Below are positions 1 through 52,009 of a stretch of DNA of 64,000 bases, one piece after another. Numbering within the stretch: the first letter of the stretch is position 1; each line of letters opens with the position of its first letter. The position numbers and the translations under genes were made by a program. Under the pieces are notes generated by a model that saw only the letters and a list, made by a program, of their open reading frames with translations, was not told the origin of the DNA and ran no database searches. Source of the stretch: a virus (lineage: Duplodnaviria > Caudoviricetes); the IMG/VR virus record IMGVR_UViG_3300028735_000004, positions 179,942 through 243,941 of that record; one strand, 5' to 3'.

Positions 1-615
1 ACGAGTTGCAACATATCTTCCAAGATCTTTTAAATTATCAATTAATGATTTATTTAAAGATTTTGCTTGGCTTACCAAATCAATAGTATCTTGTCGTAAT
101 TTGCCAATAAAAGAAGATGGAAACCTTTTTTCTAAGGCCTTAATTGCTAAATTATGTGGAGAGAAAAATCCGGCAAACATATCGCTTAAAGAAGAGAAGA
201 ATCCGGCATTTTTAACTAATTCAATTGATAATTCTGATTTTTTAGCTACAGGTTGATATTTAAATAGTTCTTCTAAATGCTCTTTTTTTGGTCTGCTTAA
301 TAAAATATCATAATTTTTAAAATTTACAATATTTTTTAAAGTATCAAATTTTTCTTTAATTGAAGAAACAGCATCATTATATTTAGTTAAATAATAAGCA
401 GTAGTTATGTAATCTCTAAGCCTGCTTGCAGAGACAGCTTTATCTAAATTGATTTCATTTTTTTCTACAATTTTTCTAATTTCATTATCAGTAGATCTAA
501 TAATCTTCATTATTTCTCTAAATTCCGAATCTCTTAATTCTAAGAATTTACCAGAAATATTAGATTTTTCTCTAACTTTACTTAAGAAACTTCTTCTTTG
601 AGCGATTTTTTTCAT
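1..615 (-). CDS. Hypothetical protein, C-terminus runs off the window (probable head-cluster protein)
   Basis: Translated by hand: open frame from ATG at 615 (MKKIAQRRSFLSKVREK...) to the window edge, preceded by an AGGGAG RBS. Contains KIAQ and KNAG motifs like its neighbours. Confidence 0.75.
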   Translation of the reverse strand, partial: MKKIAQRRSFLSKVREKSNISGKFLELRDSEFREIMKIIRSTDNEIRKIVEKNEINLDKAVSASRLRDYITTAYYLTKYNDAVSSIKEKFDTLKNIVNFKNYDILLSRPKKEHLEELFKYQPVAKKSELSIELVKNAGFFSSLSDMFAGFFSPHNLAIKALEKRFPSSFIGKLRQDTIDLVSQAKSLNKSLIDNLKDLGRYVATR

Positions 616-651
616 AACACTCCCTATTAATTATATAAAAATATTGATTAA

Positions 652-2367
652 TTAAGGAGCTTTAGGTGATGGAGGTGGAGTTAAATCTGGTGGAATGCCA
701 GAAGTATCAGGAATGCCGGAAGGTTCTCCCCCACCAGATGGACCAGCTTCATAAGGTGATTGTCCAGGTAAAGGCGGTTCTAATATTTCTGGAATATCAG
801 CATCATCAGTTAAAGACCTTAATTCATTGAGAGGCATTTGTTTAAGAGATTCTTTCTCTTTTTCTCTAATTGCTTCTGCAATATCTTCTTTTCTAATCTT
901 TCTTCTTTCTTCTTCCCATTCCAATCCTAAAGATCTATATAAAGTTTGTTGTGAAACTCGTTTTGGATCTCCGGTTAATTGAATTAAAAAGTTAATATAA
1001 TCAGCCGCATCAAATAAGCTCATATGATTCCAGTCAATATCTGGAACTATAAGAACTTTTTTCTTATCTTTAAATTCGTAAAATTCATTGAGTTTAGAAA
1101 TGGGAGCAAAAATACGACGACGAAGCCAGGTTGTCATCATATTTCTAAACTGCATATAACGCTGTCTTAATACATCAAGAGATATACCACCGTTAGCATA
1201 TGTAATATCTCCACCACCTTCCATAACTACTTGTGGTACCATTAATCCAATATAAATTTCTTTAATTAATTGCGTAATATCTCCTGAAATATCATAAATA
1301 CCTTGACCAGAACCTATTCTTTCTATAGATACCTGATCGTGAGTAATGATTTTAAAATCTTTATCATATTGTGCTTGTTCTATCAATTCTCTCCAAGCTT
1401 CAAGATCTGCCGGAGTTGGCTTATATTCAGTACCTGCCCCTCCAACTTTAACAAGAGTTAAAGGATTAATCATATTAGCGGCTTGTGCAAATTTAGATTC
1501 TCTTAATAAATCGAATAACATTAATTGTCTAAATACAGAAACTGGAAGCCCAGTGCCTCTATGTGCATATGGGCTTATTTTTCTTGCCAAATGTGAAACA
1601 TAAAAATTATCAAGAGGTATATTTTCGCCTCTTCTTACTCTTTCAATTATTGCCGGATTTAACTGATTTCTTTGTTCTATGTCGGATGGATTATTTGACA
1701 TTACTATCTTGCGTAAATTTTCATCCGGTCTTAACATAATTAACGGCTCATTTGCTATAACCGTTTTTTTAACAACTATATAATCTGGATTTTGTATTGC
1801 TAATCTACTCCATTTTAATGATTTTGAGTCTAACTCCGCATATACAAAAGCTTCACCTAACAACCAATATTCTTGAGCAACTTGAACACAAATATTCATT
1901 AAATCTATTTCTTCAATCATTTCATTAAAGAAATCTTCTACTTTTTTATTTGGACATTTAATGTTTAATTTACTAATAGGATATGTGCTATGCAAATTAA
2001 TAGCGTTTTGTACTATGGGATTTAAGGCATAAAATGATCTGCACCAGGCATTTATTGTAGCCTGGTCTCTTGGTAAATTAAGATTTGAATTAAGCCATAA
2101 TGGAGAATAAACTTCAGGCGTTTGTCTTACAGTTCCACCTGAACCTTGCCAAGAAGTTCCAGAACTACTGCTGGCTAATTGAGCATTTTTAACAATAGTT
2201 GAATATGATGCTTGTGTTAATTCATTTTTGTTTTTAAGATTACCAGATCCATCCTTAAATAAACCGGCCTCTACCTCTTCTCCAAGTGTTTCTCGCCTAT
2301 ATTGGGAAACGGATTTATACATTAATGGAGTAATTGATGGTACATATTTTTTAGTATTATCTGACAA
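652..2367 (-). CDS. Phage portal protein
   Basis: 571 aa, adjacent to terminase. Portal-like segments (RSFYALNPIVQNAINLHSTYP; AQEYWLLGEAFVY; YAHRGTGLP) and a Pro-rich tail. TTG start with AGGTGA RBS. Confidence 0.75.
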   Translation of the reverse strand: MSDNTKKYVPSITPLMYKSVSQYRRETLGEEVEAGLFKDGSGNLKNKNELTQASYSTIVKNAQLASSSSGTSWQGSGGTVRQTPEVYSPLWLNSNLNLPRDQATINAWCRSFYALNPIVQNAINLHSTYPISKLNIKCPNKKVEDFFNEMIEEIDLMNICVQVAQEYWLLGEAFVYAELDSKSLKWSRLAIQNPDYIVVKKTVIANEPLIMLRPDENLRKIVMSNNPSDIEQRNQLNPAIIERVRRGENIPLDNFYVSHLARKISPYAHRGTGLPVSVFRQLMLFDLLRESKFAQAANMINPLTLVKVGGAGTEYKPTPADLEAWRELIEQAQYDKDFKIITHDQVSIERIGSGQGIYDISGDITQLIKEIYIGLMVPQVVMEGGGDITYANGGISLDVLRQRYMQFRNMMTTWLRRRIFAPISKLNEFYEFKDKKKVLIVPDIDWNHMSLFDAADYINFLIQLTGDPKRVSQQTLYRSLGLEWEEERRKIRKEDIAEAIREKEKESLKQMPLNELRSLTDDADIPEILEPPLPGQSPYEAGPSGGGEPSGIPDTSGIPPDLTPPPSPKAP

Positions 2368-2385
2368 AATTCACCTATATGAATA

Positions 2386-2393
2386 TATATAAC
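2386..2393 (-). promoter_or_regulatory. Putative phage promoter (GTTATATA, extended -10-like) for the portal gene
   Basis: Member of the recurrent G[TA]TATAT[TA] motif found upstream of many starts; followed by an SD-containing leader. Confidence 0.45.
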
Positions 2394-2432
2394 TTTATTA
2401 CTGATTATTTATTAGACAATATTTAGTTAATG

Positions 2433-4274
2433 TTATCTAATTTTAGGAGCATATGCTAAAACTGCAGGAAGTGTTTTCTTTTCTTCTGTGAAAGAAGTTG
2501 GAAGCCCTTGGTTAGTAAAACCTTGAGTTATATAAAATTTATAAGCAATATATGCGTTTAATAAAGCAACAAAACCATCATTAACCCCAGATTTAATATA
2601 GTGAGGTGTAACATCTCCTACTCGCGATATAGAAGGTTTTATTTCCATATTAGTGCAATGCTGAATTAACCAGGCAATATGCTCATATGAGCCAAGAGGA
2701 AATCTTACCATACCTTTTTTCATTTTTTCATATAAATCAGCAATCCAATAATCTTTTTCAAACATAATTACTTTAGGAAAAATATCTGAATTATATTTTA
2801 CTTTATTATTTAACTTACCAGTAGCTTGAGCGCACAAAAATTTTTCACCTAATTCATTTTGTAATATTTCACTCAAATCGTGCGTGTATCCAAAATCCAT
2901 CATCGCAAGATTAATAGAATATTTTTGAATAAGCTCTTTGATAAAGGACTTCTTATATTCAACATTATTTTTTTTAAATTTAGCCGCAAATTCAATTGAC
3001 ATTATACCAGCATTTTTAATAGATATAATTACCGCGGTGCTATAGCTCTGCCCCTGTATTTTAAACCTTGGATTATCAACCATTTGTTCGGTGTCTTGTC
3101 TGGCGCCTATATCTATTCCTAAGAATTTTAAAGTTTGATCTTCTGGATGAAAATTAGCCCTAAATTTTCTCTCGTGATCTCCACAAATTTCTCGTATCTG
3201 ATCTTGAGTAATAATAGAAGTTTCTCCGTGGAAAAATTCTCCAAGAACTTCGTTTTGATATGCTCTTTCACTATTAATTGGACTATTTTCAGGTTTTTCT
3301 GCAAGAATTTTTTCTTTAGTAAATTCTGGCATATACAACTGATTAATATGAAATCCTATATATTGACATTCATCTGGATTTCGTAAAGGTACCCATTTAC
3401 CTCTTTCCGCTGCTTTTCTTTTGTCTTGATCGTGGCCGCAATGAGTACATCTAACAACGAAGTCATAAATCCAAATATTTTCCCATTCATTGCTTCCAGG
3501 AGTATATAATGGAAAATGCTCTCCACATTTTTCACAACCTAAATAAAAATATTGTTGAGAAGAAGCGTTCCATAATTTATGAAAATTAGAGCCTTTTTGA
3601 AGAGGAGTTCCAAAATAAACTTGAACTCCAGAACCAATAGAACCATATCTTGCTTTATTTAGAATTTTTAAAGTATTAGAAATGGCAGCTGGGCTCATTA
3701 ATTGACATTCATCAAAAAATATAACATCCGCAGTTTTTCCTCTTAATCTTGAACCATCAAGGCCAACTGATTCTATCCATAAATGATTACCGCCAACAAA
3801 TTGCTTAAATTGTAAGCTGTCATTAGTGGCGGTTGTTGCATCAATTAAAGATTGCATATGTGATTTAGATTTGCCTTTTTTATCAGGACCGTCCGTTAAT
3901 ACAGAGTTAGATATCATTTCACTTAATTTAGTTTTAGAATACGAAAAGACGTGATCTAATTGAGGAAATGCGTGCACAACTCTAATTGGAGGCCTATCTC
4001 CAGATCCAAATAATCCAGATCCCATAAAAAACATTTCAAGTACAGAAGCCATAGTAGTGCCACCGACTTGGCGTGATTTAAGTAATACAATTGGTTTAGA
4101 ATTATTTTCTAAAGCTTTAACGCCAATGTATCGATAAATTTCAATAAATGGCCTATATCCATTACTTGTTAAATTAAAAGGCTTACCATCAAGATTTAAA
4201 TAATTTTCCGCAAAATATACAGGATCTATATTTAATAGTGTTTTCTTTATTTTTTCTAAAATTTCATCTGACAT
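2433..4274 (-). CDS. Terminase large subunit (GpA-like, ATPase plus RuvC-like nuclease)
   Basis: Walker A variant KSRQVGGTT, Walker B VIFFDE, CxxC...CxxC zinc ribbon (CEKC/CTHC), nuclease motif FLGIDIG. Confidence 0.9.
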   Translation of the reverse strand: MSDEILEKIKKTLLNIDPVYFAENYLNLDGKPFNLTSNGYRPFIEIYRYIGVKALENNSKPIVLLKSRQVGGTTMASVLEMFFMGSGLFGSGDRPPIRVVHAFPQLDHVFSYSKTKLSEMISNSVLTDGPDKKGKSKSHMQSLIDATTATNDSLQFKQFVGGNHLWIESVGLDGSRLRGKTADVIFFDECQLMSPAAISNTLKILNKARYGSIGSGVQVYFGTPLQKGSNFHKLWNASSQQYFYLGCEKCGEHFPLYTPGSNEWENIWIYDFVVRCTHCGHDQDKRKAAERGKWVPLRNPDECQYIGFHINQLYMPEFTKEKILAEKPENSPINSERAYQNEVLGEFFHGETSIITQDQIREICGDHERKFRANFHPEDQTLKFLGIDIGARQDTEQMVDNPRFKIQGQSYSTAVIISIKNAGIMSIEFAAKFKKNNVEYKKSFIKELIQKYSINLAMMDFGYTHDLSEILQNELGEKFLCAQATGKLNNKVKYNSDIFPKVIMFEKDYWIADLYEKMKKGMVRFPLGSYEHIAWLIQHCTNMEIKPSISRVGDVTPHYIKSGVNDGFVALLNAYIAYKFYITQGFTNQGLPTSFTEEKKTLPAVLAYAPKIR

Positions 4275-4311
4275 ATATTAAATATATATCAATAAATAAA
4301 TTAAAAATTAC

Positions 4312-4905
4312 TTATTTAGTTGATGGTTCTAATAATTCAAACGGATCGTAATTTTCATCACCGTCAGTAGAGGTATCAATTTTTCCTAAATTTAAATTTA
4401 CTTCTTTATTTTGAGGATTATTTTTTTCTACTTCTATAATTTTATTATTAATATAAACTCTAACATCATTGGGAACATCAAATTTATTATCTAATTTTTC
4501 TTGAATAGATTTGATTTTTAATAAATCTTCAACAACTGCTTCTGGAAATGCGGTTGGTCTGCTTTCAACATAATTATCTATAAAGATTTTCATTTCAGGT
4601 ATTCTGCTGAATATTTCTGGCTCTTTATGAGTTAATGATGAAGATGCTTGTTTTTTATTTAAGAATTCTAATAAACCAGTTCTTTTTTGCATATCTAATA
4701 CTGCTTCTTCAACACTGGAATATTTTGATTTACGATTACCTAATATTTGATTAATTTCATCAAATATGACGGCATCTTGCACTTTTGATTTTACTGCACT
4801 TTTCTCTAATTCAGAAATAAAATCATCTAACCATTCTGGCTCGTATTTATTGCCTTCAAAAGTTATATCATCTCTTGAAAAAATAGAATTATTATATCTG
4901 CTCAT
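4312..4905 (-). CDS. Hypothetical protein (head cluster)
   Basis: 197-aa ORF tightly packed in the operon; no recognised domain. Confidence 0.7.
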   Translation of the reverse strand: MSRYNNSIFSRDDITFEGNKYEPEWLDDFISELEKSAVKSKVQDAVIFDEINQILGNRKSKYSSVEEAVLDMQKRTGLLEFLNKKQASSSLTHKEPEIFSRIPEMKIFIDNYVESRPTAFPEAVVEDLLKIKSIQEKLDNKFDVPNDVRVYINNKIIEVEKNNPQNKEVNLNLGKIDTSTDGDENYDPFELLEPSTK

Positions 4906-4913
4906 AATTAATA

Positions 4914-5825
4914 TTAGGCCTGATAATTACTTGCCCAATCTCCTTTACCATCACGAGTATCTACTTCTTCATCGCGTTTATATAAACGATCAGTTCTTAC
5001 TGGATAGCCCATATCTTCAAGAAATTGTGATAATTCGGCCTGTTCTCTTTCGTTTAAGGCATATTTTTTCACTTGGTCTTCGTAAAGATGTTCAATTGAA
5101 TGACCTGCGGAAACCATTCCGTTTATACAAACTCTTGCAATTCTTGATATTAATAACGGGACTGTAACTATTATCCCACCAACATATGGGGCTCTACCTT
5201 CTTTAACTAAAGATGATTTTTCCTCGGCTTTTTTCTTTTTACCATATTTGCTATCTAAAATTTCTTCTCTTCTTTTATCTAATCTAACGATACCTTCATT
5301 TATTTCATCTTTAGCTTTTGCGACTTCATCAGCATCAATTACGCCTTCAAAATCTTGTTGCATCGCTCTGGAAATTTCACTATCTAATCTTTTAAGATAA
5401 GCAATAGCTCTTTCTAAACCAGGAATATCTTTACCCGAATGATTAGGAATTTTCTTAAGCATTTCATCCAACCAAGAAGAAAAATTAGCACAATCTTCCC
5501 AATCCCAAATATTTTTAGATTTATCTTTAACTACTTTTTCTTCTTTTTTATCTTCTAAATCTTTATCAGAAATCTCTAATACTTGAGCATCATCGGGTGC
5601 TCCCGGTATATTGGGGAGTTTAAATTTAAGCTCAACTTCTACTGGAGCCACTTCCTGAGCTAAATCTTGATGCAATTCAACAACATCTTCCATTTCTGGT
5701 TTTTCATCATAAATGACTATTTCTTCATTTGATGGAGCTAATTCTACTTCGACTGGCTCATCTACCATATCAATAACTAAATCTTTATTTTCCATTAAAT
5801 CCTGTGCGCTTTTTAAAAGTGGCAT
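4914..5825 (-). CDS. Hypothetical acidic protein (head cluster, possible scaffold/inner-head protein)
   Basis: 303 aa, GAGGGA RBS, starts MPLLKSAQ. The function is inference only. Confidence 0.65.
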   Translation of the reverse strand: MPLLKSAQDLMENKDLVIDMVDEPVEVELAPSNEEIVIYDEKPEMEDVVELHQDLAQEVAPVEVELKFKLPNIPGAPDDAQVLEISDKDLEDKKEEKVVKDKSKNIWDWEDCANFSSWLDEMLKKIPNHSGKDIPGLERAIAYLKRLDSEISRAMQQDFEGVIDADEVAKAKDEINEGIVRLDKRREEILDSKYGKKKKAEEKSSLVKEGRAPYVGGIIVTVPLLISRIARVCINGMVSAGHSIEHLYEDQVKKYALNEREQAELSQFLEDMGYPVRTDRLYKRDEEVDTRDGKGDWASNYQA

Positions 5826-5871
5826 AGTTCCCTCGATAAATATTCTTCAATATTATATAATAATATACATA

Positions 5872-6309
5872 TTAAAGTTTTTTTGATAATATTTTATTTA
5901 ATATTTCTGCTCTTTTTTGTAATTTATACATTCTATCTGCGTTTTGAGTAAAACCATAATAAAGATTATGATAATAAGTGCTTGTTTGATCGTCCATTGG
6001 GACGGTAAATAATCCATTCATTCCGGTATTATCCATAGTATTTGTATAATAATCAGATGGTTTTAATGTAGGTAATTTACACGTTTCTATAACTTTATTA
6101 TACAAACAATTAACTTGATGATCAAAAATTTCTCCAGCATACTTACATTGTGTATTTGGTGATTTTTCTAATAATAATTGTTTATTTTTAGACACATCTG
6201 TGGTATCCATTAAATCAACTAAATCACCAGCTTTTTTACAATCTTTTGTAATATCTAAGCCAAATGGACATTTATTTGCCTGATCTCTTAAAACCGATAA
6301 TTTTTTCAT
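5872..6309 (-). CDS. Hypothetical Cys-containing protein
   Basis: 145-aa ORF with several Cys; overlaps the next gene by 4 nt. Confidence 0.65.
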   Translation of the reverse strand: MKKLSVLRDQANKCPFGLDITKDCKKAGDLVDLMDTTDVSKNKQLLLEKSPNTQCKYAGEIFDHQVNCLYNKVIETCKLPTLKPSDYYTNTMDNTGMNGLFTVPMDDQTSTYYHNLYYGFTQNADRMYKLQKRAEILNKILSKKL

Positions 6310-7241
6310 TGTGGTTTATTTTTTCTAATTTTATCGATTAATTGTTTTCTTTTGTTTTTTCTTTTTTTTCTAAATTCAGATAAGCTTTTATTTTTCTTCA
6401 TATCAGAATATAAACCTAATCCAGGACCTTCTTTATCTTCTATCCCATAATCAAAATTACTAAAAAATTGAGCATTTTTAACTGAATTATAAATTACTTT
6501 TTTATTATAAAATGGCTGCAAATCTTCATTAATTGGTATATAATTCCAAATATCCATTTCATTTAATAAATAAACCAATCTATCGGGATTATGATTTAAT
6601 GCTTTATTTATATTTTTAACTTTATATTGCAATTTGATTTGATTTAAATATTGTTTATTATTTTTAATCCAATTAATAATTTTAGGATCTACATCAAAAT
6701 CTAACTTAGAAGATAAATACAATACCCTAATTATTCTATTTACATTATATTTAAATGTTAATTCTGGATCCAGGCATGTGCGTATGAATTTATTTTCGAT
6801 ATCATCTATACCTAATTCAGTTAAATCTAATGTTGTTTTTAAATCAAAATTTAATAATAAAGAATTACAAGTAAAATCTCTACTATAAATTTCTTTTTCA
6901 AGTTCAGTTGGTTTTTCTATACCTTTATAATGTAAAATTTTTTCTATATTAGGTATTTTAAAATTAGAAGAAAAATCTATTTTTAAAGAACCCGTATAAA
7001 CCGATGTATGACCGTCATCCATTTTTTTAGAAGCAGACGGTAATATTTTTGCTAATTCAATAGAAAACTCTTTAGCCAAATAATGTATAGTTTTATCACC
7101 ATTTGTAATATCTAAATCAGAAATATTATCTAATTTGTCAAGATATTTATCGCGAGGCACACCACCACATATAAAAGGTTTAGAAAAACCTTTATTTTCT
7201 GCAATATTTTCTATTAGATTTAATAAATCCTTTAGTTTCAT
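6306..7241 (-). CDS. CCA-adding enzyme / poly(A) polymerase family nucleotidyltransferase (class II)
   Basis: Motifs ICGGVPRD, DLD (catalytic DxD), SRDFTCNS, DPELTF and NRIIRVL. CCA versus PAP activity cannot be distinguished by eye. Confidence 0.9.
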   Translation of the reverse strand: MKLKDLLNLIENIAENKGFSKPFICGGVPRDKYLDKLDNISDLDITNGDKTIHYLAKEFSIELAKILPSASKKMDDGHTSVYTGSLKIDFSSNFKIPNIEKILHYKGIEKPTELEKEIYSRDFTCNSLLLNFDLKTTLDLTELGIDDIENKFIRTCLDPELTFKYNVNRIIRVLYLSSKLDFDVDPKIINWIKNNKQYLNQIKLQYKVKNINKALNHNPDRLVYLLNEMDIWNYIPINEDLQPFYNKKVIYNSVKNAQFFSNFDYGIEDKEGPGLGLYSDMKKNKSLSEFRKKRKNKRKQLIDKIRKNKPQ

Positions 7242-7244
7242 TCA

Positions 7245-8840
7245 TTAAACTGCTTTTGTTGGTACTGGTGCCGAGGTAGGAGGAGCTGGAGCTGGTGTAG
7301 GTGTAGGAGCGACTACTTCGGTAGGCTGTTCTGCTAATTCCTGTTGAACATTTTCTACAGCAGGTTTTTCGCCATCTAATTTATCTACTAACTCTTTATC
7401 TCTAACTTTTTTCTTCATATCTTTTAACTTAACTTCTTGTTCTCTTTGTTGTTTGATTTTATCTCTTAAAGCTTTTTGTTCTGGAGTTAAGTTTAATTCA
7501 GTTTTTTCTCCAAGTAAATCAATTTCAGATACACCTATGGAGCCTCTAAGAGAGGATAAAATACCTTCGATACGACTATTAACATAAGTAGAAGCTTCTA
7601 ACATTTTATGTTGAGCTTCGGGTAATGACGGGAAGAATGAAGCTAAACCTAATTTATTTAACATAGCATCAATTATTGCTAATTGTCTGCTTATTTCTCT
7701 ATTTTTAAATAAAACATTAACTTCTTCTAATTTATCAATTACATCTTGAATTGTAATATCAGAGAAAGCGGCATCAATCAATTCATCAAATTTTGACTTA
7801 GGTTCCCTTATCCAGCCTTTTTGTTGCTCTTGTTTTTCAGGAGCTACGGCCGGTTCTAAATTCTCTTGTGATTTTACCGGAGCACTTTCATTTAATTGTG
7901 CTTCTACAAATAATTCATCATCTTTTTCTAAAGGCAATATTTCTTGTTCTAAAATTATTTCATCTTCTACTGAATTAAGATCGGTAATACCAGATGTTTC
8001 TAAATTATCTATAAAACCAGCAATACCTTCAAAAGATTTTTCTTTTTTATCTTTATCTAAACCTGGTTCAGTTAAATCAGGGGTATTATTTGGTAATGTT
8101 CCTTTACCATCTATTTTACTATCTAACGGTAATGGGCCTTGATTTGCGTTAAAATTGCCGGGGGTATTTTGTGATAATTTATAAACAAAATCTGCAGATT
8201 TTATAAATCCTTGATTTTTTAAAATATTTGATTGTCTTATAATTAAATCATTATAAATGGAATTGGCAAAACTATTTTTATTTACTATTTGTATTTGTTT
8301 TTTTAATTCATAAATAGAATTTAATAATTTTTCAAACTCTGAACCAGCAAAAATTTGACCATCTTGAGAAGATAATAATTTTTCAGCAGAATGTAATCTT
8401 CCTAAAATTTTTCTGCGCTGCTCTTCTATAATTCTTCTTTTTTCTTCTTTATTTAATGCTTGTTCTTTATTTGAGATTACCGCATTTTTAGCTTCAGTAG
8501 AAACATTATTAATATCTTTTAATGGGCTGGGTGGAATAAAAGAAGAAGGTGCAGGATTAGGTATAAAATAATTAGGTATATCTTCACTTACATAATAATT
8601 ATTTTGGGCCGTTTTATATTTTAAGTGTTCTTTGCCTTCATAAAATTTCATCCAATTTAGAAATGCAATTTTCTCTAATTTATCCCAATTTATAGTACAT
8701 TCATTAACGGCATCATTTTTGGAAGATCCCATATGAATGCGCATATAAACTTGTTTCATAACATCTACCCACTTACTTATGTCATAAGCTGGTTTAGATG
8801 TTCCTGGATCACTATAGTTTGGATAAGATATTTTATGCAT
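7245..8840 (-). CDS. Hypothetical protein with coiled coils and a Pro/Ala/Thr-rich tail (head cluster)
   Basis: 531-aa ORF ending APTPTPAPAPPTSAPVPTKAV. Confidence 0.7.
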   Translation of the reverse strand: MHKISYPNYSDPGTSKPAYDISKWVDVMKQVYMRIHMGSSKNDAVNECTINWDKLEKIAFLNWMKFYEGKEHLKYKTAQNNYYVSEDIPNYFIPNPAPSSFIPPSPLKDINNVSTEAKNAVISNKEQALNKEEKRRIIEEQRRKILGRLHSAEKLLSSQDGQIFAGSEFEKLLNSIYELKKQIQIVNKNSFANSIYNDLIIRQSNILKNQGFIKSADFVYKLSQNTPGNFNANQGPLPLDSKIDGKGTLPNNTPDLTEPGLDKDKKEKSFEGIAGFIDNLETSGITDLNSVEDEIILEQEILPLEKDDELFVEAQLNESAPVKSQENLEPAVAPEKQEQQKGWIREPKSKFDELIDAAFSDITIQDVIDKLEEVNVLFKNREISRQLAIIDAMLNKLGLASFFPSLPEAQHKMLEASTYVNSRIEGILSSLRGSIGVSEIDLLGEKTELNLTPEQKALRDKIKQQREQEVKLKDMKKKVRDKELVDKLDGEKPAVENVQQELAEQPTEVVAPTPTPAPAPPTSAPVPTKAV

Positions 8841-8868
8841 AGCCTTATAAATATACTATAATATTGTA

Positions 8869-9630
8869 TTAATTATCAGTTTTTTCTAAATTACTTAAAA
8901 TTTGAGTTTCTAACTGTTTAACTTGCTCTAATCTTTCTTCTACTGGTAAGATATTAATTGGCGTAGATTTAATTTTTTTAATTTTTTCATTAAATAAATC
9001 AATAAATAACATAGATGTATTATAATCTAATTTAGCCAAAATTTCTTTAATTATTTCATATACTACACCTATATGCTGGTCTAATATTTGTATGTTAATA
9101 TTATTATTTTGCTGTTGTAAAATTTGTTCTTGCGGCTTATTAATAATTTTATCATATTTTTCAAATACATCAGATAAAGTATTAAACCATTCAATTAAGG
9201 TTCTATCCATTTTGGTGTTTCTTGGATTTTCTTGAATAGTATCAAACACTTGTTCGGCACGATATTGAATGTTAAATATCATTCTTTTTAATCTGGTATG
9301 AATATCAATCTCTTGATTTAAATACTCGGTTAATTTATCTTGATAGTCAGAGTTAGATTTTATTACTTCTTTTATTTCTTGATCTGGAGTATTTTGTTTT
9401 TCATATAATTTTATTATATCTTCTTTAATTTGAGTATAGATATCTAAGTACTCATCTTTAAATATTTCTAAAGATTTTTCAGAAAACACATATTTTTGTT
9501 CTTTATCGTATTTGACCGATAGCCATTCATTAATATCAGATAGCGGAAAACCAAGTAATAATTTAGAAATAATCTCATCCCTATCAGGATGAGATAACAT
9601 ATTTTGTACTAACTCTTTATTTTTACTCAT
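8869..9630 (-). CDS. Hypothetical helical protein
   Basis: 253-aa ORF, possibly with an N-terminal HTH-like region; no firm family. Confidence 0.65.
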   Translation of the reverse strand: MSKNKELVQNMLSHPDRDEIISKLLLGFPLSDINEWLSVKYDKEQKYVFSEKSLEIFKDEYLDIYTQIKEDIIKLYEKQNTPDQEIKEVIKSNSDYQDKLTEYLNQEIDIHTRLKRMIFNIQYRAEQVFDTIQENPRNTKMDRTLIEWFNTLSDVFEKYDKIINKPQEQILQQQNNNINIQILDQHIGVVYEIIKEILAKLDYNTSMLFIDLFNEKIKKIKSTPINILPVEERLEQVKQLETQILSNLEKTDN

Positions 9631-9643
9631 AGTACAATATATA

Positions 9644-10342
9644 TCATTTATTCATTCTTGATTCACGGGTGCTAAAAGTCATTTCTGATGGAGTTCTTTT
9701 ATCCAAAAGACTTTGATTTTCTGTTGCGCCACCTGGTACTTTATTACCTTTTAAAGTGGTAAATCCAGTTCTAAAATTATAAACTTTATTATCTAAACTG
9801 CAACGCCAAACATCTTCCCCTATTCTTTCTACTTGCAATCCTGGGTGATCTGGGCAGGTTCTTGTAGATAGTGGGGCCTCAAGAGTAATATATTGTTTCC
9901 CAGCTTCGCTTTTCTCTATGGCTTCAACGGCTTCAGAAACTTTACTGTCTTGGTGTTGTCTATCTAAAGTTTGATTATACTTTTTTTTTAATTCTTCTAT
10001 TTTATCTTCTTCTGCTTTTTTAAATTGAGCAACGGCATCTTTAGGCGCACCTATTGTTAATAATATTTCATCTAAAACTGATGCTATTTTTAATAAATCA
10101 GGATCTCCACTATTATCAAAAGCGGTGGCAAGTTGAGCAACTTCATCTAAATCTGATGGAGCAAGCCCTTGTTCCATTTGCTCTAATTCAGAGGCGCCTT
10201 TTCTTAATTCTTCAGCCGCTAAAACTAAACTTTCTGCAACTTTATTTAAAACCTGATCATTATCTTCAACACTATTTAAAATTTCATTATCAGGATTTTC
10301 TAACCAGCTGGCTAATGCTAATAGTTTTTTATAAGATTTCAT
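9644..10342 (-). CDS. Hypothetical protein with a C-terminal zinc-ribbon-like motif
   Basis: TCPDHPG...WRCSLD. Confidence 0.65.
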   Translation of the reverse strand: MKSYKKLLALASWLENPDNEILNSVEDNDQVLNKVAESLVLAAEELRKGASELEQMEQGLAPSDLDEVAQLATAFDNSGDPDLLKIASVLDEILLTIGAPKDAVAQFKKAEEDKIEELKKKYNQTLDRQHQDSKVSEAVEAIEKSEAGKQYITLEAPLSTRTCPDHPGLQVERIGEDVWRCSLDNKVYNFRTGFTTLKGNKVPGGATENQSLLDKRTPSEMTFSTRESRMNK

Positions 10343-10701
10343 TTTTTACCTAACTGCAAAGTTGATTTAATAAAAGTGGTATAAGCATCTTGTATTAACT
10401 TAATGTCATTTATTAATTGAGATTTTGTATTTAAATATACGCTATTAAAATCAGGACCAGGAGGAACATCTTTTTGTTTTCTAATGGTGTTAATAAAATT
10501 AGTAATAGATTCTTTATCGTTTTGAAGTTGGCTTAATGAATTATAAAAATTATACAATATATATGCCATCTCTAATAATTCATTTCTTTTATCTTTTGTA
10601 TCCTGAAGTATTGCAATTGGAGGAGGACCGCCTTTAACAGGACTCCATTCTTGTTTTTGAGCAAGTTTTTTTAAAAATATAACTCTATCTTTAATATTCA
10701 A
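10339..10701 (-). CDS. Hypothetical protein
   Basis: 120 aa with a GAGG RBS; KKLAQ near the N-terminus. Confidence 0.6.
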   Translation of the reverse strand: MNIKDRVIFLKKLAQKQEWSPVKGGPPPIAILQDTKDKRNELLEMAYILYNFYNSLSQLQNDKESITNFINTIRKQKDVPPGPDFNSVYLNTKSQLINDIKLIQDAYTTFIKSTLQLGKK

Positions 10702-10708
10702 TTGATCC

Positions 10709-12343
10709 TCAAAAAAGAATTTTGCTTGTCATACTTAATGCGCTTCCAGCATCCTCTATATTCTTTCTGTATAATGGAACACAATTACCATTCTTATCTT
10801 GATAAACTTTATTTATAGGTAATCCTGTATGACCACAGATTGTTTGTGTGCTATGCGCGTGTTTAACTTTCATATTACAAGTATTTTGCGGTTTTTCTTT
10901 TTGATTTAAACAATCAATATAAGTAGCAAACGCTGATTTATAAGCGTTTTCATATGCAAATTTATCCGGAGTATCTTCTGAGGATTTTGCTAAAATAACA
11001 TTAAGAGCATCTTCTGCTTTCTTTAAATTACCTTCGGCCATTGATTTTTCAACAATATCAACTAAAGCCCCAGGGTGTAAGGGATATAATGATGATATCG
11101 ATGATGCCGCTTTATAATCAAACGATAATGAAGTTGATAATCTTGTTAAACCTTCTTTATCAAAAGTTTCAATAGATCCGTTTGATACGATAAATGGAGA
11201 TAATTCAACATTATTTCCACTTATTTTAACAGGAGTAGTAAAAACAACATTATTTGCTTTTACTGTAAAAGAAACATCATCATCTCCTACATCTGATAAT
11301 GACATTTGATAATCTTTTATACCTAATTCATTAAGAGCTGATTTTAGAATTTGAGATGCTTTATTTAAAGCTTGTTTTCCAAATTTAAATTCTGCTATTC
11401 CTGCTTTACTATCAAAATGTTTTGCAAAATTTAATATTTCAGTATCTTCATATTTTGGCAAATCTAAATCTTTTTGTTCTAATTCCGGGATAGAATTATA
11501 AACTACATTATTATCAAATAAACTGCCCGATGTTTCAGCTTGGGCATTTAATTTTGAAACCGCTAAATCAACACCACTAATAGTATCTTCTTCAAGTGAA
11601 GCTAAAGCGTTTAATACTTTTTGTTCATTTACTTTTAATGATGAACCAGCATTAGATAATATATAATTTTTAATACTATCTTCTGTTAGTTCTACCGGAC
11701 CCTCATTTCCTATAAAAACTGAAGGAAATAATGGAGTTTTACCATTCATTTCTACTGGCAATAATACATTAGTTAAACCTTTAGGAGTTTCAAAAGAAGC
11801 TTTGCATAAAATGAAATGATCTTCTTTTCCTCCAACAATCGATACTTCTTTTGGTGATATAAGTAATGAATTTAATGAATTAAAACAAACATCAGCGGCT
11901 TTTTTAGCCGTAATTGATGAATAAGCTTCTTTTTTAACGCCAAATGCTAAATTTAAAGAAGATAATAATACCGGGTCTATTACTTTATCATAAATAGAAT
12001 CTAATGAAGCATCAGCCGAATCATCACTTCTATCATAGATTTTAACTTGATTTTTATTTTCAACTTGACCTAATTCTTCTGCAAATAATTGAGCAAATTT
12101 AGTATTTCTTGAATATAATTTACTATATAAATCTTTAATTTCTGCTCTAGAAATTAGAATTTTATTTGAGTTTAACATCATTTTTTTGGTAATTTCTGAC
12201 ATCATACCAATACAATGATCTTCCGGATACTGTTTTGAAGCTCTGGAGAGTTTTTCAACAAAAAGCGGCAAAGCTATTTTTTCATTATCTTCTATCATTT
12301 TTGATAATGATTCAGCTATTTTTTTAATTTCATTAAAACTCAT
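10709..12343 (-). CDS. Hypothetical protein (head cluster)
   Basis: 544 aa, AGGTGA RBS, C-terminal Cys/His cluster. Confidence 0.7.
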   Translation of the reverse strand: MSFNEIKKIAESLSKMIEDNEKIALPLFVEKLSRASKQYPEDHCIGMMSEITKKMMLNSNKILISRAEIKDLYSKLYSRNTKFAQLFAEELGQVENKNQVKIYDRSDDSADASLDSIYDKVIDPVLLSSLNLAFGVKKEAYSSITAKKAADVCFNSLNSLLISPKEVSIVGGKEDHFILCKASFETPKGLTNVLLPVEMNGKTPLFPSVFIGNEGPVELTEDSIKNYILSNAGSSLKVNEQKVLNALASLEEDTISGVDLAVSKLNAQAETSGSLFDNNVVYNSIPELEQKDLDLPKYEDTEILNFAKHFDSKAGIAEFKFGKQALNKASQILKSALNELGIKDYQMSLSDVGDDDVSFTVKANNVVFTTPVKISGNNVELSPFIVSNGSIETFDKEGLTRLSTSLSFDYKAASSISSLYPLHPGALVDIVEKSMAEGNLKKAEDALNVILAKSSEDTPDKFAYENAYKSAFATYIDCLNQKEKPQNTCNMKVKHAHSTQTICGHTGLPINKVYQDKNGNCVPLYRKNIEDAGSALSMTSKILF

Positions 12344-12353
12344 TTAATCACCT

Positions 12354-12812
12354 TTAAAGTAGCTCCGGATATTTTTTACATATTTCTTGTCTTTTATCTT
12401 CATTTAATTCTTGAAGTAAAGCTTGAACTAATTTTTTATTTTCTGCTAATTTTTTAGGTAAATAAGAAATTGTTTTATTAAGCTCTTCTTTAGAAAGGCC
12501 TAATTTAGAAGAAGCCATTTTTGTTAAAAACTCCCCTTTATAATTAAATACTAAATCCTGTGATATTTTGCTTATACCAACCTGCCAATCAGATGCTTCT
12601 GATTTCTTTTCTTCAGTATCTTGATATAAGGCAACTATGTAATCGCCATCTTCGGCATTTTGAATTTGCCATAATTCTTCAAGATTACCATCTTTAAATC
12701 TAACTACATCAAATGCTACTTTTTCGATACGATCTTGAACATCAGATAATTTATATCTTTTTTTATCAACGGCATCTGATAATGTTTGATAATCTAAAGA
12801 AAATTTGTTCAT
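12354..12812 (-). CDS. Hypothetical protein
   Basis: 152 aa with a GAGG RBS. Confidence 0.65.
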   Translation of the reverse strand: MNKFSLDYQTLSDAVDKKRYKLSDVQDRIEKVAFDVVRFKDGNLEELWQIQNAEDGDYIVALYQDTEEKKSEASDWQVGISKISQDLVFNYKGEFLTKMASSKLGLSKEELNKTISYLPKKLAENKKLVQALLQELNEDKRQEICKKYPELL

Positions 12813-41150: not shown

Positions 41151-41507
41151 TTATTTTAATATGATTTCATCACCAATGGAAATGCAATGTGTTTTACAAA
41201 AACCATATGGAGCTTCAACTATTAAATCGGTGGGATGGTTTGGTCCAATAGCCTCTTCTGAATGAGGCTCTCCTTTTTTAATATCTATTACTTTACCTTT
41301 ATAACAAAAAATCATATCTATTGGTAAAGAACAATTTTTCATCCAAAATTTATTATATCTTGGAGAAGAAAAAACAAAAGACATTATGGGAACCGGATCC
41401 ATAAACATAACGCCTTTTTGTTTTTCTTCTTCAGTTAAAGCAAGAAGTGTATTAAATGCCTTGGTTCCTAATAAAATAATACCATTCTTCATAGCAAAAT
41501 TATTCAT
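41151..41507 (-). CDS. DUF192 family protein
   Basis: ALT...KGVMF, FWMKN..LPIDMIF and ..VEAPYG. Confidence 0.8.
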   Translation of the reverse strand: MNNFAMKNGIILLGTKAFNTLLALTEEEKQKGVMFMDPVPIMSFVFSSPRYNKFWMKNCSLPIDMIFCYKGKVIDIKKGEPHSEEAIGPNHPTDLIVEAPYGFCKTHCISIGDEIILK

Positions 41508-49965: not shown

Positions 49966-50304
49966 TTAATATACGAAACTGTAGGTATCCCAAGGTAATT
50001 TATTTTCCTTGGCTAATTTATTTACTGTATCTTGTAATTTTTTTAAGAAACCAGCTTTGCCAGGTTTAAATACAACTTTTACAACGCCAATTGATCTTTG
50101 TGTTCTTGGATCTTTTCCTGGATGAACTTCTAATCTTTCAATAGCTTGTTTTAATTCAGGAGCTGCATTTAAAATAGTTTCAGCTTCTCTTAAATTTGGT
50201 TTAACTGGCTCTCTGTAGTCCATTGGAGGGGCTTGTTTTCCAAATTGAGCCAATTTTTTTTCAAATTTTTCTGCTAATTTAAGAATTTTTGTTTTAACCA
50301 TCAT
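49966..50304 (-). CDS. Hypothetical basic protein
   Basis: 112 aa with KLAE and KKLAQ at the N-terminus. Confidence 0.65.
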   Translation of the reverse strand: MMVKTKILKLAEKFEKKLAQFGKQAPPMDYREPVKPNLREAETILNAAPELKQAIERLEVHPGKDPRTQRSIGVVKVVFKPGKAGFLKKLQDTVNKLAKENKLPWDTYSFVY

Positions 50305-50322
50305 ACTATTTATATGTAATTA

Positions 50323-50793
50323 TTACTTATTTAAAAGATAATCTTGAATAATTTTATCATTTAAATATTTATTTTTAATATTTTCCGGTAATAAATAAAA
50401 CCCGCTAATAATTTTTCTACAATTATAAGCTCCACAATCGCATTTTAAATTGAATGTTTTTTCATCTTCTGTACTTGTTAAAGAATAATCTATTAATAAT
50501 TCTTCATCTTTTCTAATATCCCTATAGGCTATTAAAAAAACATTATTTACAGCAATTTTTATATAACAGTTTGGATTACAAGAATGATTTATAAAAAAAC
50601 TTTCAGTATTGCTCATATCTAAAAATTTATCTAAACCAATCTGTAAGTAATGATAAGTTTCAGTTGAGGATAAATTTTCTATATTTATTTTTGGAATTAT
50701 TTTTCCATTTATTCTAAGCAATATATCATTTTTTTTATGAAATTGATCGGTAAATAAACCGTTTCTGTTTTTATTTTTTTTGATGCTCAACAT
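50323..50793 (-). CDS. SET-domain lysine methyltransferase with a post-SET motif
   Basis: GLFT, FINHSCNPN, EELLIDY and CDCGAYNCR. Confidence 0.92.
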   Translation of the reverse strand: MLSIKKNKNRNGLFTDQFHKKNDILLRINGKIIPKINIENLSSTETYHYLQIGLDKFLDMSNTESFFINHSCNPNCYIKIAVNNVFLIAYRDIRKDEELLIDYSLTSTEDEKTFNLKCDCGAYNCRKIISGFYLLPENIKNKYLNDKIIQDYLLNK

Positions 50794-51571: not shown

Positions 51572-52009
51572 TTATTTAATATTTTGGACTGATGTTTTCC
51601 AAGTGCTTAATAAAGTAATAATTTCAGTTTTTAGTCGGTTAATTGTCGGTTCAGAAAAAGAATATGTATTTAATTTAATCGATAAATCATTAATTAATTT
51701 TAATATTTGCTCAGAACTATATTGTTTTTTATCATTTACATTAGTTAAATATTTATATATTAATTTAACAAATTCTGATAAATATTTTTTAGAACCACTT
51801 AAAGCCATTAAAGATGGGTTTAATGCTAAAAATTTAAAATTTAATTTCTGATTATTATAAATAATATCATCTAATACATTGTTTATTTTTAGATAAATTT
51901 TATTTAAATAAATCCAATCGTTTTCTCTAAAAAGATAATTATTAACATTAGGCAAGTATCTAATATCTTGAGATTGAGCTAATTTTAGCAAAAATTTTAA
52001 TCTGTTCAA
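51572..52009 (-). CDS. Hypothetical protein
   Basis: 145 aa beginning MNRLKFLLKLAQ. Confidence 0.6.
   Translation of the reverse strand: MNRLKFLLKLAQSQDIRYLPNVNNYLFRENDWIYLNKIYLKINNVLDDIIYNNQKLNFKFLALNPSLMALSGSKKYLSEFVKLIYKYLTNVNDKKQYSSEQILKLINDLSIKLNTYSFSEPTINRLKTEIITLLSTWKTSVQNIK

Follow-up and report, generated by a model that had tools for sequence, protein, structure and literature searches.

A conserved Lys-x-Ala motif in the head module of an uncultured phage-G-like huge phage, a candidate recognition site of its prohead protease

Proteins of the head module of an uncultured huge phage related to Bacillus phage G are enriched in the short motif Lys-x-Ala, which is selectively conserved among relatives. 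The same module encodes a protease whose putative catalytic His and Ser are conserved. We infer that Lys-x-Ala is probably the recognition site of this prohead serine protease. If true, Lys-x-Ala would be a hitherto undescribed cutting rule of a phage head protease; our literature search found no publication, and such a rule has not been described for phages. The analysis was based on a 64,000-nucleotide stretch (the window; positions 179,942 to 243,941 of IMG/VR record IMGVR_UViG_3300028735_000004), supplemented with other parts of the same genome and with contigs of relatives.

A first-pass annotation of the window had listed examples of Lys-x-Ala followed by Gln, Ser, Glu or Gly, and upon re-translation every one was found in the gene named (Table 1). 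In the 13 ORFs of positions 1-12812 K.A[QSEG] occurs 25 times against 5.3 expected (Poisson P 5e-10). Shuffling within windows of 10-40 residues, which keeps the local composition, raised the expectation only to about 6 (z=8). The other 70 ORFs of the window showed no excess of K.A[QSEG] (17 vs 14.6 expected), and neither did the permuted controls A.K[..], KA.[..] and [..]A.K (approximately 1x in the window). In the extended head module of the same genome (28 proteins) K.A[QSGAE] was found 45 times against 19.5 expected (P 5e-7), with little or no comparable excess of the T4-type [LI].E (1.24x), phiKZ-type [SAG].E (0.95x) or assemblin-type [VLI].A[ST] (0.99x) patterns. The reported tendency of the motif to lie near N-termini was also real: K.AQ starts at or before residue 25 in 5 of 86 proteins (0.27 expected), a number not matched in any of 500 shuffles.

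The motif was picked post hoc, from reading the sequence, which counts against the protease reading. In a blind scan of 48,000 three-residue patterns K.AQ ranked third (P 1.3e-5) and by itself fails correction for multiple testing, so that the weight of the argument falls on the degenerate motif and on independent support from relatives. Refined, the motif reads hydrophobic-x-K-x-A with Q, S, G, A or Y next, the hydrophobic residue 1-2 positions N-terminal of the Lys being part of the signal. The range of residues after Ala is wider than the Gln, Ser, Glu and Gly of the original description, Ala and Tyr being frequent.

The relatives used for comparison have portal proteins 64-73% identical to that of the window phage, and their contigs extend up to 446 kb. 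Across the whole contigs of two of them, the head region contained 26 (5.9 expected, P 9e-10) and 19 (6.9 expected) copies of [LIVMF].K.A[QSGA]; outside the head region the ratio was 1.7-2.3x, and permuted controls stayed at approximately 1x. The Lys-x-Ala excess was seen again in relatives of 35-47% GC. Positional conservation held for about half of the sites, which are conserved islands within variable linkers, and not for the other half; orthologue alignments revealed approximately eight such islands with flanking indels. Conservation of the motif Lys was 0.59 vs 0.37 for other Lys residues of the same proteins (P 1e-3), and that of the motif Ala 0.63 vs 0.43 (P 4e-3), each approximately 0.2 above its local surroundings. 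Permuted motifs, and K.A with another next residue, had no conservation excess. In a ranking of 1200 conserved residue pairs, four of the top five places went to A-Q, V..A, L..A and K.A. All-against-all BLAST of the motif segments detected no shared modules, indicating that the segments are not paralogous. The segments on either side of the site were compared in six candidate substrates, and in four of them the N-terminal one is the less conserved. These comparisons support the view that Lys-x-Ala is a short linear motif kept by selection and clustered in the head module.

Table 1. Genes of the window and the motif copies they contain (nucleotide positions; residues in brackets)
Gene (strand)	Protein	Motifs
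1..615 (-)	N-terminal 205 aa of 534-aa protein	KIAQ 598-609 (3-6); KNAG 202-213 (135-138)
652..2367 (-)	Portal	KNAQ 2179-2190 (60-63); KFAQ 1483-1494 (292-295)
2433..4274 (-)	Large terminase	KNAG (420); KAAE (287)
4312..4905 (-)	197-aa protein	KQAS 4642-4653
4914..5825 (-)	303-aa protein	KSAQ 5802-5813; second site, KEGR 5193-5204
6306..7241 (-)	Nucleotidyltransferase	KNAQ 6468-6479 (255-258)
7245..8840 (-)	531-aa protein	KTAQ 8604-8615 (76-79)
9644..10342 (-)	232-aa protein	KIAS 10079-10090 (85-88); KVAE
10339..10701 (-)	120-aa orphan	KLAQ 10657-10668
10709..12343 (-)	544-aa protein	KIAE 12311-12322; KFAQ 12089-12100; KAAS 11102-11113
41500-42834	Distant orphan	KQAS
49966..50304 (-)	112-aa orphan	KLAQ 50245-50256
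50323-50793	SET-domain protein	
51572..52009 (-)	145-aa orphan	KLAQ 51974-51985

The portal protein (PHROG portal, E 5e-55; 33% identical to phage G gp14) carries its candidate site KNAQ in a variable Ser/Thr/Gly-rich N-terminal arm. Lys is present at this site in 70, Ala or Gly in 65 and Gln in 64 of 70 orthologues, whereas the flanks are 0.40 identical and contain indels; identity is 0.38 over residues 1-62 and 0.69 over the remainder. The portal KFAQ, located in the conserved core, is probably structural. The gene directly after the portal gene encodes a 534-aa protein, whose full length was obtained from the same genome (L081/L082). It begins with M-x-K-x-A-Q-x-R in 52 of 58 orthologues, and its KNAG corresponds to l-i-K-E-A-g in 41 of 58, with indels on both sides and a flank identity of 0.19. 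In the large terminase (PHROG TerL, E 2e-54) both copies were counted as chance, since the motif occupies those columns in 0-1 of 61 orthologues.

The proteins encoded upstream of terminase lie where the first-pass annotation had placed its head-cluster proteins; the label goes by position only, with no cultured-phage homologue and no proteomic support. In the 531-aa protein the sequence K-Y-K-x-A-Q has Lys and Ala in 36 of 36 orthologues and Gln in 31; the motif at site 76, kept in 33 of 36, has a conservation of 0.85 vs 0.59 for the flank, with indels on both sides. The N-terminal leader of the 303-aa protein ends with KSAQ, where Ala and Gln are found in 41-42 of 45 orthologues and Lys in 8-9. 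A second site of this protein marks the boundary between a variable Lys/Arg-rich linker and the conserved C-terminal approximately 95 aa; relatives have l-v-K-E-A-Q-K here (37 of 45), with 55 additional alignment columns upstream, and identity rises from 0.31 before the site to 0.57 after it. The window phage is off consensus at this position (K-E-G-R), which counts against the protease reading. The PolyA_pol/CCA-type nucleotidyltransferase (Pfam PF01743 and PHROG tRNA nucleotidyltransferase matches) has KNAQ at the junction to a basic C-terminal tail of approximately 55 aa, and K-x-A-Q precedes the same tail in two of the three closest relatives. In about ten relatives the enzyme is joined via K-x-A-Y-F-Q-G-G-G-G to a module shared with the scaffold; in others this module is a separate gene starting with M-S-x-N-K-x-A-Y-F-Q-G-G-G-G.

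KQAS of the 197-aa protein, itself conserved upstream of terminase, is weakly conserved (same column in 5 of 43 orthologues). In the 232-aa protein KIAS is kept in 21 of 29 orthologues, but the stretch is generally conserved, and KVAE, KGAS and KKAE are not conserved (0, 2 and 7 of 29). Alignment of the 544-aa protein with five orthologues (33-42% identical) revealed partial conservation of KAAS and KFAQ in a structured-looking context and no conservation of the N-terminal KIAE. The 120-aa orphan, whose N-terminal leader ends with KLAQ followed by a Pro-rich stretch, has no homologue in the contigs of five relatives. Some strongly conserved sites (portal 292, site 85 of the 232-aa protein, and several each in the scaffold and in the 544-aa protein) have surroundings that are uniformly conserved and probably folded, and these sites may be structural, an observation that counts against the protease reading.

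The prohead protease, expected by the first-pass annotation elsewhere in the genome, was found 4.5-7.8 kb beyond the window start, adjoining the motif-rich genes. It constitutes the N-terminal domain of a protease-scaffold polyprotein of 1120 aa, matches PHROG head maturation protease (E 4e-15) and shares 34% identity with phage G gp19. An AF2 model of the core (pLDDT 95.3) has the gp21/assemblin fold: VIA-align gave Z 10.4 to T4 gp21 (5jbl; rmsd 2.9 A, 126 residues), 10.4 to VZV protease (1vzv) and 9.6 to PrV pUL26N, and Foldseek gave probabilities of 0.9-1.0 to herpesvirus proteases. Sequence similarity to T4 gp21 was not significant (hhalign E 0.16); in this alignment the invariant His135 and the near-invariant Ser186 face H85 and S140, the catalytic residues of T4 gp21 (10.64898/2026.03.04.709575).

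More than 20 conserved [KR]-x-[AG] columns are distributed over the polyprotein, a dozen or more of them within the scaffold. In 134 polyprotein representatives K.A was found at 1.56x, K.AQ at 4.7x and K.AY at 5.4x the expectation, and A.K, KA and K..A at only 0.9-1.0x. Relatives have one conserved site just after the protease domain and another approximately 38 residues from the C-terminus. The window phage also has a candidate site approximately 38 residues from the scaffold C-terminus; after its protease domain it has S-L-A-D, off consensus, which counts against the protease reading. The capsid protein could be inspected in relatives, the window phage's own capsid gene not having been recovered: 58 distinct relatives carry L-V-K-Y-A-[A/S] in an N-terminal extension of this protein, at residues 22-27.

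According to the proposed mechanism the protease would cut its own scaffold at the many Lys-x-Ala sites. It would also trim the N-termini of the portal, the capsid protein and several proteins that assemble with them, taking off either a short leader or a longer arm, and would detach cargo, e.g. the nucleotidyltransferase, from a tail resembling the scaffold. We favour cleavage after Ala over the other readings, with rather more confidence than doubt; the scissile bond most likely has Lys in P3 and Ala in P1, because Ala is the most constrained residue, the next one varies between small, polar and aromatic, and the herpesvirus assemblins of the same fold cut after Ala. In two of the leaders the part removed would be just 5-7 residues long; so short a leader is unusual and counts against the protease reading. 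The idea that Lys-x-Ala is used like other head-protease sites is strengthened by the short linear motif, by the adjacent gp21/assemblin-fold protease fused to a site-rich scaffold and by the matching placement, with cleavage inferred from sequence. The suggestion that injected cargo could be predicted from the bare motif did not survive, since about half of the listed examples are not conserved and a four-residue pattern cannot predict cargo alone.

The T4 prohead protease gp21 (MEROPS S77) cuts at I/L-x-E, and T4 internal proteins carry an N-terminal capsid-targeting sequence. The phage protease shares with gp21 its fold, the aligned catalytic His and Ser and a gene position in a portal-scaffold-capsid module; putative sites likewise lie in N-terminal leaders (capsid, minor head and small proteins) and throughout the scaffold, and the short leaders ending in a site resemble the T4 targeting sequence. 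In contrast to T4, where Leu/Ile and Glu take the places of Lys and Ala, [LI].E is barely enriched here, and the protease is fused with the scaffold and carries a conserved Cys/Cys/Cys/His insertion. The herpesvirus assemblin/UL26 polyprotein (MEROPS S21) is cut at R and M sites. Fold, union of protease and scaffold in one polypeptide and Ala in P1 with a small or polar residue after it are common to both systems, and the candidate sites after the protease domain (relatives) and near the C-terminus (also this phage) correspond in position to the release and maturation sites. Unlike in herpesviruses, Lys in P3 is the hallmark, [VLI]-x-A-[ST] is not enriched, the scaffold has many more sites and many non-scaffold proteins carry them; the lineage is that of a bacteriophage, and sequence similarity to the herpesvirus enzymes is not detectable. 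PrV assemblin cuts after Ala in Y-L-Q-A|T and V-Q-A|S (PMC4498786).

As in phiKZ-type giant phages, one protease motif seems to terminate the propeptides of many different head proteins, probable ejected enzymes among them. The phiKZ gp175 and SPN3US gp245 proteases cut after Glu at S/A/G-x-E and process many head and ejection proteins. Here [SAG].E is not enriched and the head genes are related to phage G instead. The candidate sites are placed as those of T4- and phiKZ-type proteases: in N-terminal leaders, at linker borders, in the scaffold and at the capsid N-terminus. Propeptides that hold multiple motifs are a further shared feature (PMC10052503). Phage G is the closest cultured relative, its gp27 being 54-56% identical to the capsid protein in relatives of the window phage. 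KVAS and KIAS occur in the C-terminal tail of gp19, KQAA and KMAS in the gp14 portal arm, and the motif is only approximately twofold enriched in phage G (13 vs 6.2 expected). Unlike in the window phage, the phage G protease is separate (300 aa), and gp27 lacks the capsid N-terminal extension of the relatives. Three observations count against the protease reading: phage G gp15, gp21 and gp27 lack the motif altogether, its enrichment in phage G is only the twofold just given, and a phage G virion study (fully tryptic searches) reported no processing.

Could the motif be bound and left uncut? A docking or targeting peptide, by which head proteins attach to scaffold, portal or chaperone during prohead assembly, would explain islands in disordered linkers, which fit any short linear motif, and the placement at residues 3-8 in two families, which leaves almost nothing for removal. 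In relatives' scaffold and nucleotidyltransferase the Lys-x-Ala junction is moreover followed by a longer common module, Y-F-Q-G-G-G-G-V-N-E-P-T-P. This separate module is the better targeting candidate; the notion of Lys-x-Ala itself as a capsid-targeting code was not supported. Docking would not lead one to expect a dozen or more copies along the scaffold itself, or sites in the tail of the stand-alone protease of phage G, and the required small residue at the third position with a tolerant next position is typical of an assemblin-fold P1/P1' pair; we regard docking as unlikely. Modification of the motif Lys, e.g. methylation by the SET-domain protein encoded within the window (Pfam PF00856, E 5e-15), agrees with an invariant Lys in an exposed linker. 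Nothing ties this protein to the head module, however, and the equally strict Ala two residues on and the density of scaffold sites fit a protease better, making modification very improbable.

The motif might have no dedicated function and reflect the helix-forming sequence style of head and scaffold proteins rich in Lys, Ala, Gln and Glu, combined with post-hoc pattern choice. The failure of K.AQ alone among the scanned patterns, the non-conserved examples and the occurrence of KKLAQ-type strings in designed coiled coils agree with this. Against it are the permuted motifs of the same composition, which lack an excess, the z=8 that persists with 10-residue-window shuffles, the recurrence across the GC range of relatives, the selective conservation of motif residues and the location of several sites in non-helical Ser/Gly/Thr-rich linkers. 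We judge it a poor candidate, less probable than docking. KKLAQ-like strings are common in amphipathic and coiled-coil helices, designed coiled coils being among the matches, which counts against the protease reading.

The distant orphans had also been cited as motif carriers. With no motif excess in the remainder of the window they are individually unproven, apart from the 112-aa protein. The 145-aa orphan has an N-terminal leader ending with KLAQ and no homologue in five relatives. In the 112-aa protein, encoded outside the head module, an N-terminal helix ends with KLAQ and a Pro-rich stretch follows. Two homologues (G003 and G005, 31-34% identical) keep KLAQ at residues ~20-25, then Pro-rich sequence. 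The protein is a candidate packaged small protein. G005 has two tandem copies of it.

Lys-x-Ala followed by Gln, Ser, Glu or Gly is a real motif under selection in the head module of this phage. The first-pass annotation had listed it in proteins around portal and terminase as a candidate prohead-protease cleavage or capsid-targeting code, and re-translation of the coordinates found every motif that it cited. In the 13 ORFs of positions 1-12812, K.A[QSEG] occurs 25 times against 5.3 expected from the composition of each protein; in the 70 ORFs that lie beyond 14186 the count is 17, with 14.6 expected. Permutations of the same composition (A.K[..], KA.[..], [..]A.K) showed no excess. In 5 of the 86 window proteins, against 0.27 expected, K.AQ starts no later than residue 25, and the motif-bearing N-terminal leaders have little in common beyond the motif itself. 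Paralogy was rejected as the cause of the recurrence, since all-against-all BLAST of the motif segments gave nothing.

The window has a GC content of about 27%, and its minus strand carries nearly all genes. Transcription runs from 12812 towards 1, therefore the head genes run on beyond the window start. The locus was extended with a 64-kb Logan contig carrying the same sequence; it stops short of the capsid gene, and the capsid N-terminus is known from relatives only. Apart from the three genes of 1-12812 with an assignment in the table, PHROG and family searches assigned no family to the ORFs of this region. A related portal was found in 316 IMG/VR contigs, of which 80 were retained (portals 64-73% identical, contigs of up to 446 kb). 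The nearest cultured relative is Bacillus phage G: the portal is 33% identical to its gp14 and the protease 34% to its gp19, and the capsid protein of the relatives is 54-56% identical to gp27. For the 531- and 534-aa proteins a tblastn search of cultured phages gave no match, so that their virion location cannot be transferred from a proteome. Comparison of the 402-aa protein with PDB sequences yielded coiled-coil noise only. The 459-aa protein was rejected as capsid protein; the related-loci search with it was without result and an ESM Atlas look-up was uninformative.

Features of the head locus and of related loci (L081, L082 and L084, same-genome loci extending the window; other L numbers, loci of relatives; G005, genome of a relative)
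Feature	Position	Strand	Remark
Portal	652-2367	-	PHROGs
Large terminase	2433-4274	-	PHROGs
PolyA_pol/CCA-type nucleotidyltransferase	6306-7241	-	
112-aa orphan	49966-50304		
SET-domain protein	50323-50793		possible lysine methyltransferase
Thg1-like tRNA-His guanylyltransferase	50793-51554		
Genes 3' of portal, in order			full 534-aa protein (first 205 residues = ORF 1-615), 285, 128, 220, 252, 208, 53 aa, 1120-aa polyprotein, eight more ORFs
1120-aa polyprotein	L082:10854-14216		4.5-7.8 kb before window start
Nucleotidyltransferase fused to module protein (230-380 aa)	L048, L042, L037, L063, L024, L041, L076, L071, L070, L061		
Module protein as separate overlapping gene	L053:4746-5582, L067:4344-5639		
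Two tandem paralogues of the 112-aa orphan	G005:C1:79627-80365		L172 region
Large terminase ORF, closest long relative	L002:6966-9872		968 aa
GIY-YIG endonuclease	L010:17409-18080		
HNH/DUF723 endonuclease	L084:13014-13913		the window's own genome
Tyr/dual-specificity phosphatase-like and lysozyme-like proteins	L082:9246-10004 and L082:7357-8214; L010:13641-14696		between portal and protease-scaffold

The 28 proteins of the extended head module contain K.A[QSGAE] 45 times against 19.5 expected (2.3x). In the same proteins the T4-type motif [LI].E reached only 1.24x (148 against 119), the phiKZ/SPN3US-type [SAG].E 0.95x (126 against 132 expected), and the herpesvirus-type [VLI].A[ST] showed no enrichment (0.99x). 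Whole contigs of two relatives (150 and 252 kb, GC higher than in the window) were also scanned. Their head regions have 26 and 19 copies of [LIVMF].K.A[QSGA], with 5.9 and 6.9 expected, respectively; outside the head regions of these contigs the motif is found at 1.7-2.3x and the controls at about 1x.

Positional conservation was assessed in orthologue alignments of 16 families from 80 loci. Several sites are kept in relatives, others are not. At portal residue 60, within a Ser/Thr/Gly-rich arm, Lys is present in 70/70 sequences, Ala or Gly in 65/70 and Gln in 64/70. The 534-aa protein has M-x-K-x-A-Q-x-R at residue 3 (52/58) and l-i-K-E-A-g at residue 135 (41/58; flank identity 0.19), and the 531-aa protein K-Y-K-x-A-Q at residue 76 (33/36). 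In the 303-aa protein l-v-K-E-A-Q-K stands at the border of a Lys/Arg-rich linker in 37 of 45 sequences, where the window reads K-E-G-R. K-n-A-A at residue 127 of the 220-aa protein and polyprotein positions 628 and 898 are also conserved. These sites form conserved islands amid variable, indel-rich sequence, and the islands are K-x-A, not x-x-E. Across all families the conservation of motif Lys is 0.59 against 0.37 for other Lys, and that of motif Ala 0.63 against 0.43; both stand about 0.2 above the residues around them. This excess is absent from permuted motifs and from K.A before other residues. When 1200 conserved residue pairs were ranked blind, four of the top five were A-Q, V..A, L..A and K.A, which jointly spell [LV]-K-x-A-Q.

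Among the cited examples that did not hold up, K-V-A-E (9644), K-Q-A-S (4312) and the N-terminal K-I-A-E of the 544-aa protein are not conserved, and K-Q-A-S of 41500-42834 lies at a linker border with a non-conserved Lys. The terminase K-N-A-G, a match beyond the annotation's list, is not conserved either, and no homologue was found for the 120-aa and 145-aa orphans. The 112-aa orphan keeps K-L-A-Q and a Pro-rich stretch in homologues 31-34% identical. The motif is real and selected, but with about half of the cited examples not conserved it does not yet predict cargo. For the 112-aa orphan, each of the two tandem paralogues has a helix L-V-K-I-A-[E/K] ... K-L-A-Q at its N-terminus, after which the sequence is Pro-rich or variable. 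In the window the SET-domain protein and the Thg1-like protein adjoin small orphans with K-L-A-Q leaders.

The polyprotein is rich in sites. Counting alignment columns where 45% or more of 33 homologues have [KR]-x-[AG] gives more than 20, of which at least a dozen fall in the scaffold. One conserved site directly follows the protease domain, another, K-K-A-G in the window phage, is found about 38 residues before the C-terminus, and two open a repeated module, K-x-A-Y-F-Q-G-G-G-G-V-N-E-P-T-P. In 134 full-length polyprotein representatives K.A was enriched 1.56x, K.AQ 4.7x and K.AY 5.4x, and A.K, KA and K..A stood at 0.9-1.0x; F or L is favoured two positions before the Lys and V or R one position before. 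The capsid protein of the relatives has L-V-K-Y-A-[A/S] at residues 22-27 in 58/58 distinct sequences, on an N-terminal extension of about 45 residues that phage G gp27 does not have. The 80 contigs examined for it (L085-L089, L091-L170) share 90-100% identity in this capsid protein, and their portals are only 64-73% identical to that of the window.

The prohead protease, which the annotation had expected elsewhere in the genome, is encoded just outside the window and has an assemblin fold. Residues ~108-216 of the 1120-aa protein match the PHROG 'head maturation protease' (E 4e-15). Its gene is located in the head-assembly module, 5.1 kb downstream of the portal, and the protease is fused to scaffold: outside its domain the polyprotein is helical and of low complexity, and the C-terminal part matches phage G gp21. 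A profile search gave 2,525 protease representatives (50% identity) at E <= 1e-3, and the best 150 of them are mostly polyproteins of 1,000-1,670 aa.

A search of PDB sequences with the alignment of protease homologues produced coiled-coil noise only. A first AF2 model (residues 1-320, 33 sequences) was dropped, its pLDDT being 52 and its Foldseek matches not significant. The core-only model (residues 45-250, 67 diverse sequences) had a pLDDT of 95.3, and with it Foldseek found almost only herpesvirus proteases and T4 gp21 (probability 0.9-1.0, E 5e-3 to 0.1). VIA-align gave Z 10.4 to T4 gp21 (5jbl_A; rmsd 2.9 A, 126 aligned), Z 10.4 to the VZV protease (1vzv) and Z 9.6 to PrV pUL26N, against a background of ~7 for unrelated MlaD barrels. 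Eighteen chains had Z of at least 8, and among the matches listed all were gp21 or herpesvirus proteases. Among 33-67 homologues, His135 never varies and Ser186 varies rarely if at all. Hhalign, in a statistically weak alignment (E 0.16), places them on H85 and S140 of T4 gp21, the residues mutated to inactivate that enzyme (10.64898/2026.03.04.709575). By fold, catalytic residues and gene context the polyprotein protease belongs to the gp21/assemblin superfamily, with predicted activity. Complex prediction for the protease core and the portal N-terminal arm (score 0.01, partner pLDDT ~31) gave no answer on an interface. Residues 196-212 of the polyprotein, in the protease core, contain a Cys/Cys/Cys/His cluster (C-x-x-C ... 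C-x-H) that shows little or no variation in the alignments and by its sequence looks like a zinc-binding insertion; we know of no such insertion in gp21 or assemblins.

From a selected motif and a protease encoded in the same module we infer the rest. The motif is most probably the cleavage code of a prohead protease with a new class of specificity. The assemblin-fold enzyme would recognise hydrophobic-x-K-x-A and cut after Ala, fragmenting its own scaffold, trimming the portal arm and the capsid N-terminus, removing leaders and freeing cargo. The cut is placed after Ala because this is the most constrained position (occasionally Gly), because the next residue is variable (Q, S, G, A, Y, E), and because assemblins cut after Ala, as in the PrV assemblin sites Y-L-Q-A↓T and V-Q-A↓S (PMC4498786). 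The segment before the site is less conserved than that after it in the portal and in the proteins of 303, 232 and 220 aa, a pattern that a propeptide would show; the proteins of 531 and 534 aa depart from it. A docking motif that is left uncleaved is an unlikely but not negligible reading of the motif.

A habit of helix composition, combined with post-hoc choice of the pattern, would also produce an apparent excess. Shuffling in windows of 10, 20 or 40 residues, which keeps the local composition, gave about 6 +/- 2.4 motifs in place of the 25 found (z=8). Because the pattern had been chosen after reading the sequence, 48,000 three-residue patterns were also scanned blind; K.AQ ranked third (P 1.3e-5) and alone fails multiple-testing correction, and the degenerate motif passes a rough Bonferroni estimate. 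The independent support from relatives and from the extended module is stronger than the corrected window count, and we consider the compositional explanation improbable. Modification of the Lys, for example by the SET-domain protein, would put the constraint on this residue, and Ala is conserved along with it; this we regard as very improbable.

In the nucleotidyltransferase, K-N-A-Q at residue 255 joins the enzyme to a basic C-terminal tail of ~55 aa, which the nearest relatives share. In about ten more distant relatives the enzyme runs through K-x-A-Y-F-Q-G-G-G-G into the module that is repeated in the scaffold; where the module protein is separate, it begins M-S-x-N-K-x-A-Y-F-Q-G-G-G-G. 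A programmed frameshift joining the two was rejected, as the module protein has its own ATG overlapping the stop codon. At the sequence level, the nucleotidyltransferase gene shows fusion and fission with the scaffold-like Y-F-Q-G-G-G-G-V-N-E-P-T-P module, and the window keeps the tail alone. The shared module is the best hint that enzymes are first anchored to the core and later released, and suggests that targeting is done by the module rather than by the four-residue motif. It is possible, if doubtful, that phage-G-like huge phages load putatively packaged cargo in this modular way, with enzymes and small proteins held at the prohead core by modules derived from the scaffold (such as Y-F-Q-G-G-G-G-V-N-E-P-T-P and the basic tail of the nucleotidyltransferase) or by short N-terminal leaders, each through a K-x-A junction cut by the assemblin-like protease.

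T4-like and phiKZ-like prohead proteases cut after Glu, and herpesvirus ones after Ala. To our knowledge only a few phage groups have a prohead protease whose specificity has been established, and the literature on phage cleavage rules yielded the T4, phiKZ/SPN3US and herpesvirus motifs only, with no Lys-x-Ala rule; the phage G multi-omics paper has no processing data. The system described here would work like T4 gp21 with its internal proteins and like herpesvirus UL26. Its putative Lys-x-Ala specificity differs from all those described. Ala followed by Q, S, G, A or Y fits one part of the herpesvirus code (V/L/I)-x-A↓S, Ala at P1 before Ser or another small residue; the P3 equivalent at the predicted scissile bond is Lys, not an aliphatic residue. 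A T4-like capsid-targeting sequence is an N-terminal leader that loads cargo and is then removed; of the putative leaders here, that of the 112-aa family is kept in its homologues, and little beyond the motif is common to the leaders.

If true, the rule would be a third class of prohead-protease specificity, covering a very large, mostly uncultured clade (the 316 portal contigs and 2,525 protease representatives). From it, the ends of the mature portal, capsid protein and scaffold fragments could be predicted, and it would nominate packaged and ejected proteins such as the nucleotidyltransferase. Modular loading, if it occurs, would allow the packaged and injected proteome to be read from sequence in hundreds of uncultured genomes, with a CCA/poly(A)-type nucleotidyltransferase among its members. 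Host immune sensors reportedly recognise prohead proteases by means of decoy loops matching their specificity (10.64898/2026.03.04.709575), and a new specificity therefore tells where to look for sensors against these phages.

The terminase ORF of the closest long relative, at 968 aa, exceeds the 613 aa of the window's, with only 435 residues aligning, suggesting an insertion, for example of an intein or a fused domain. Homing endonuclease genes (GIY-YIG, HNH/DUF723) lie inside the head module at insertion places that differ between relatives. The phosphatase-like and lysozyme-like proteins encoded between portal and protease-scaffold are candidate packaged enzymes. The lysozyme-like protein has an SLT domain in the relative (L010) and a weak glucosaminidase match in the window's genome. 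The 252-aa protein is Tyr-phosphatase-like, and K-x-A motifs are few in the phosphatase family (0.3 per orthologue).
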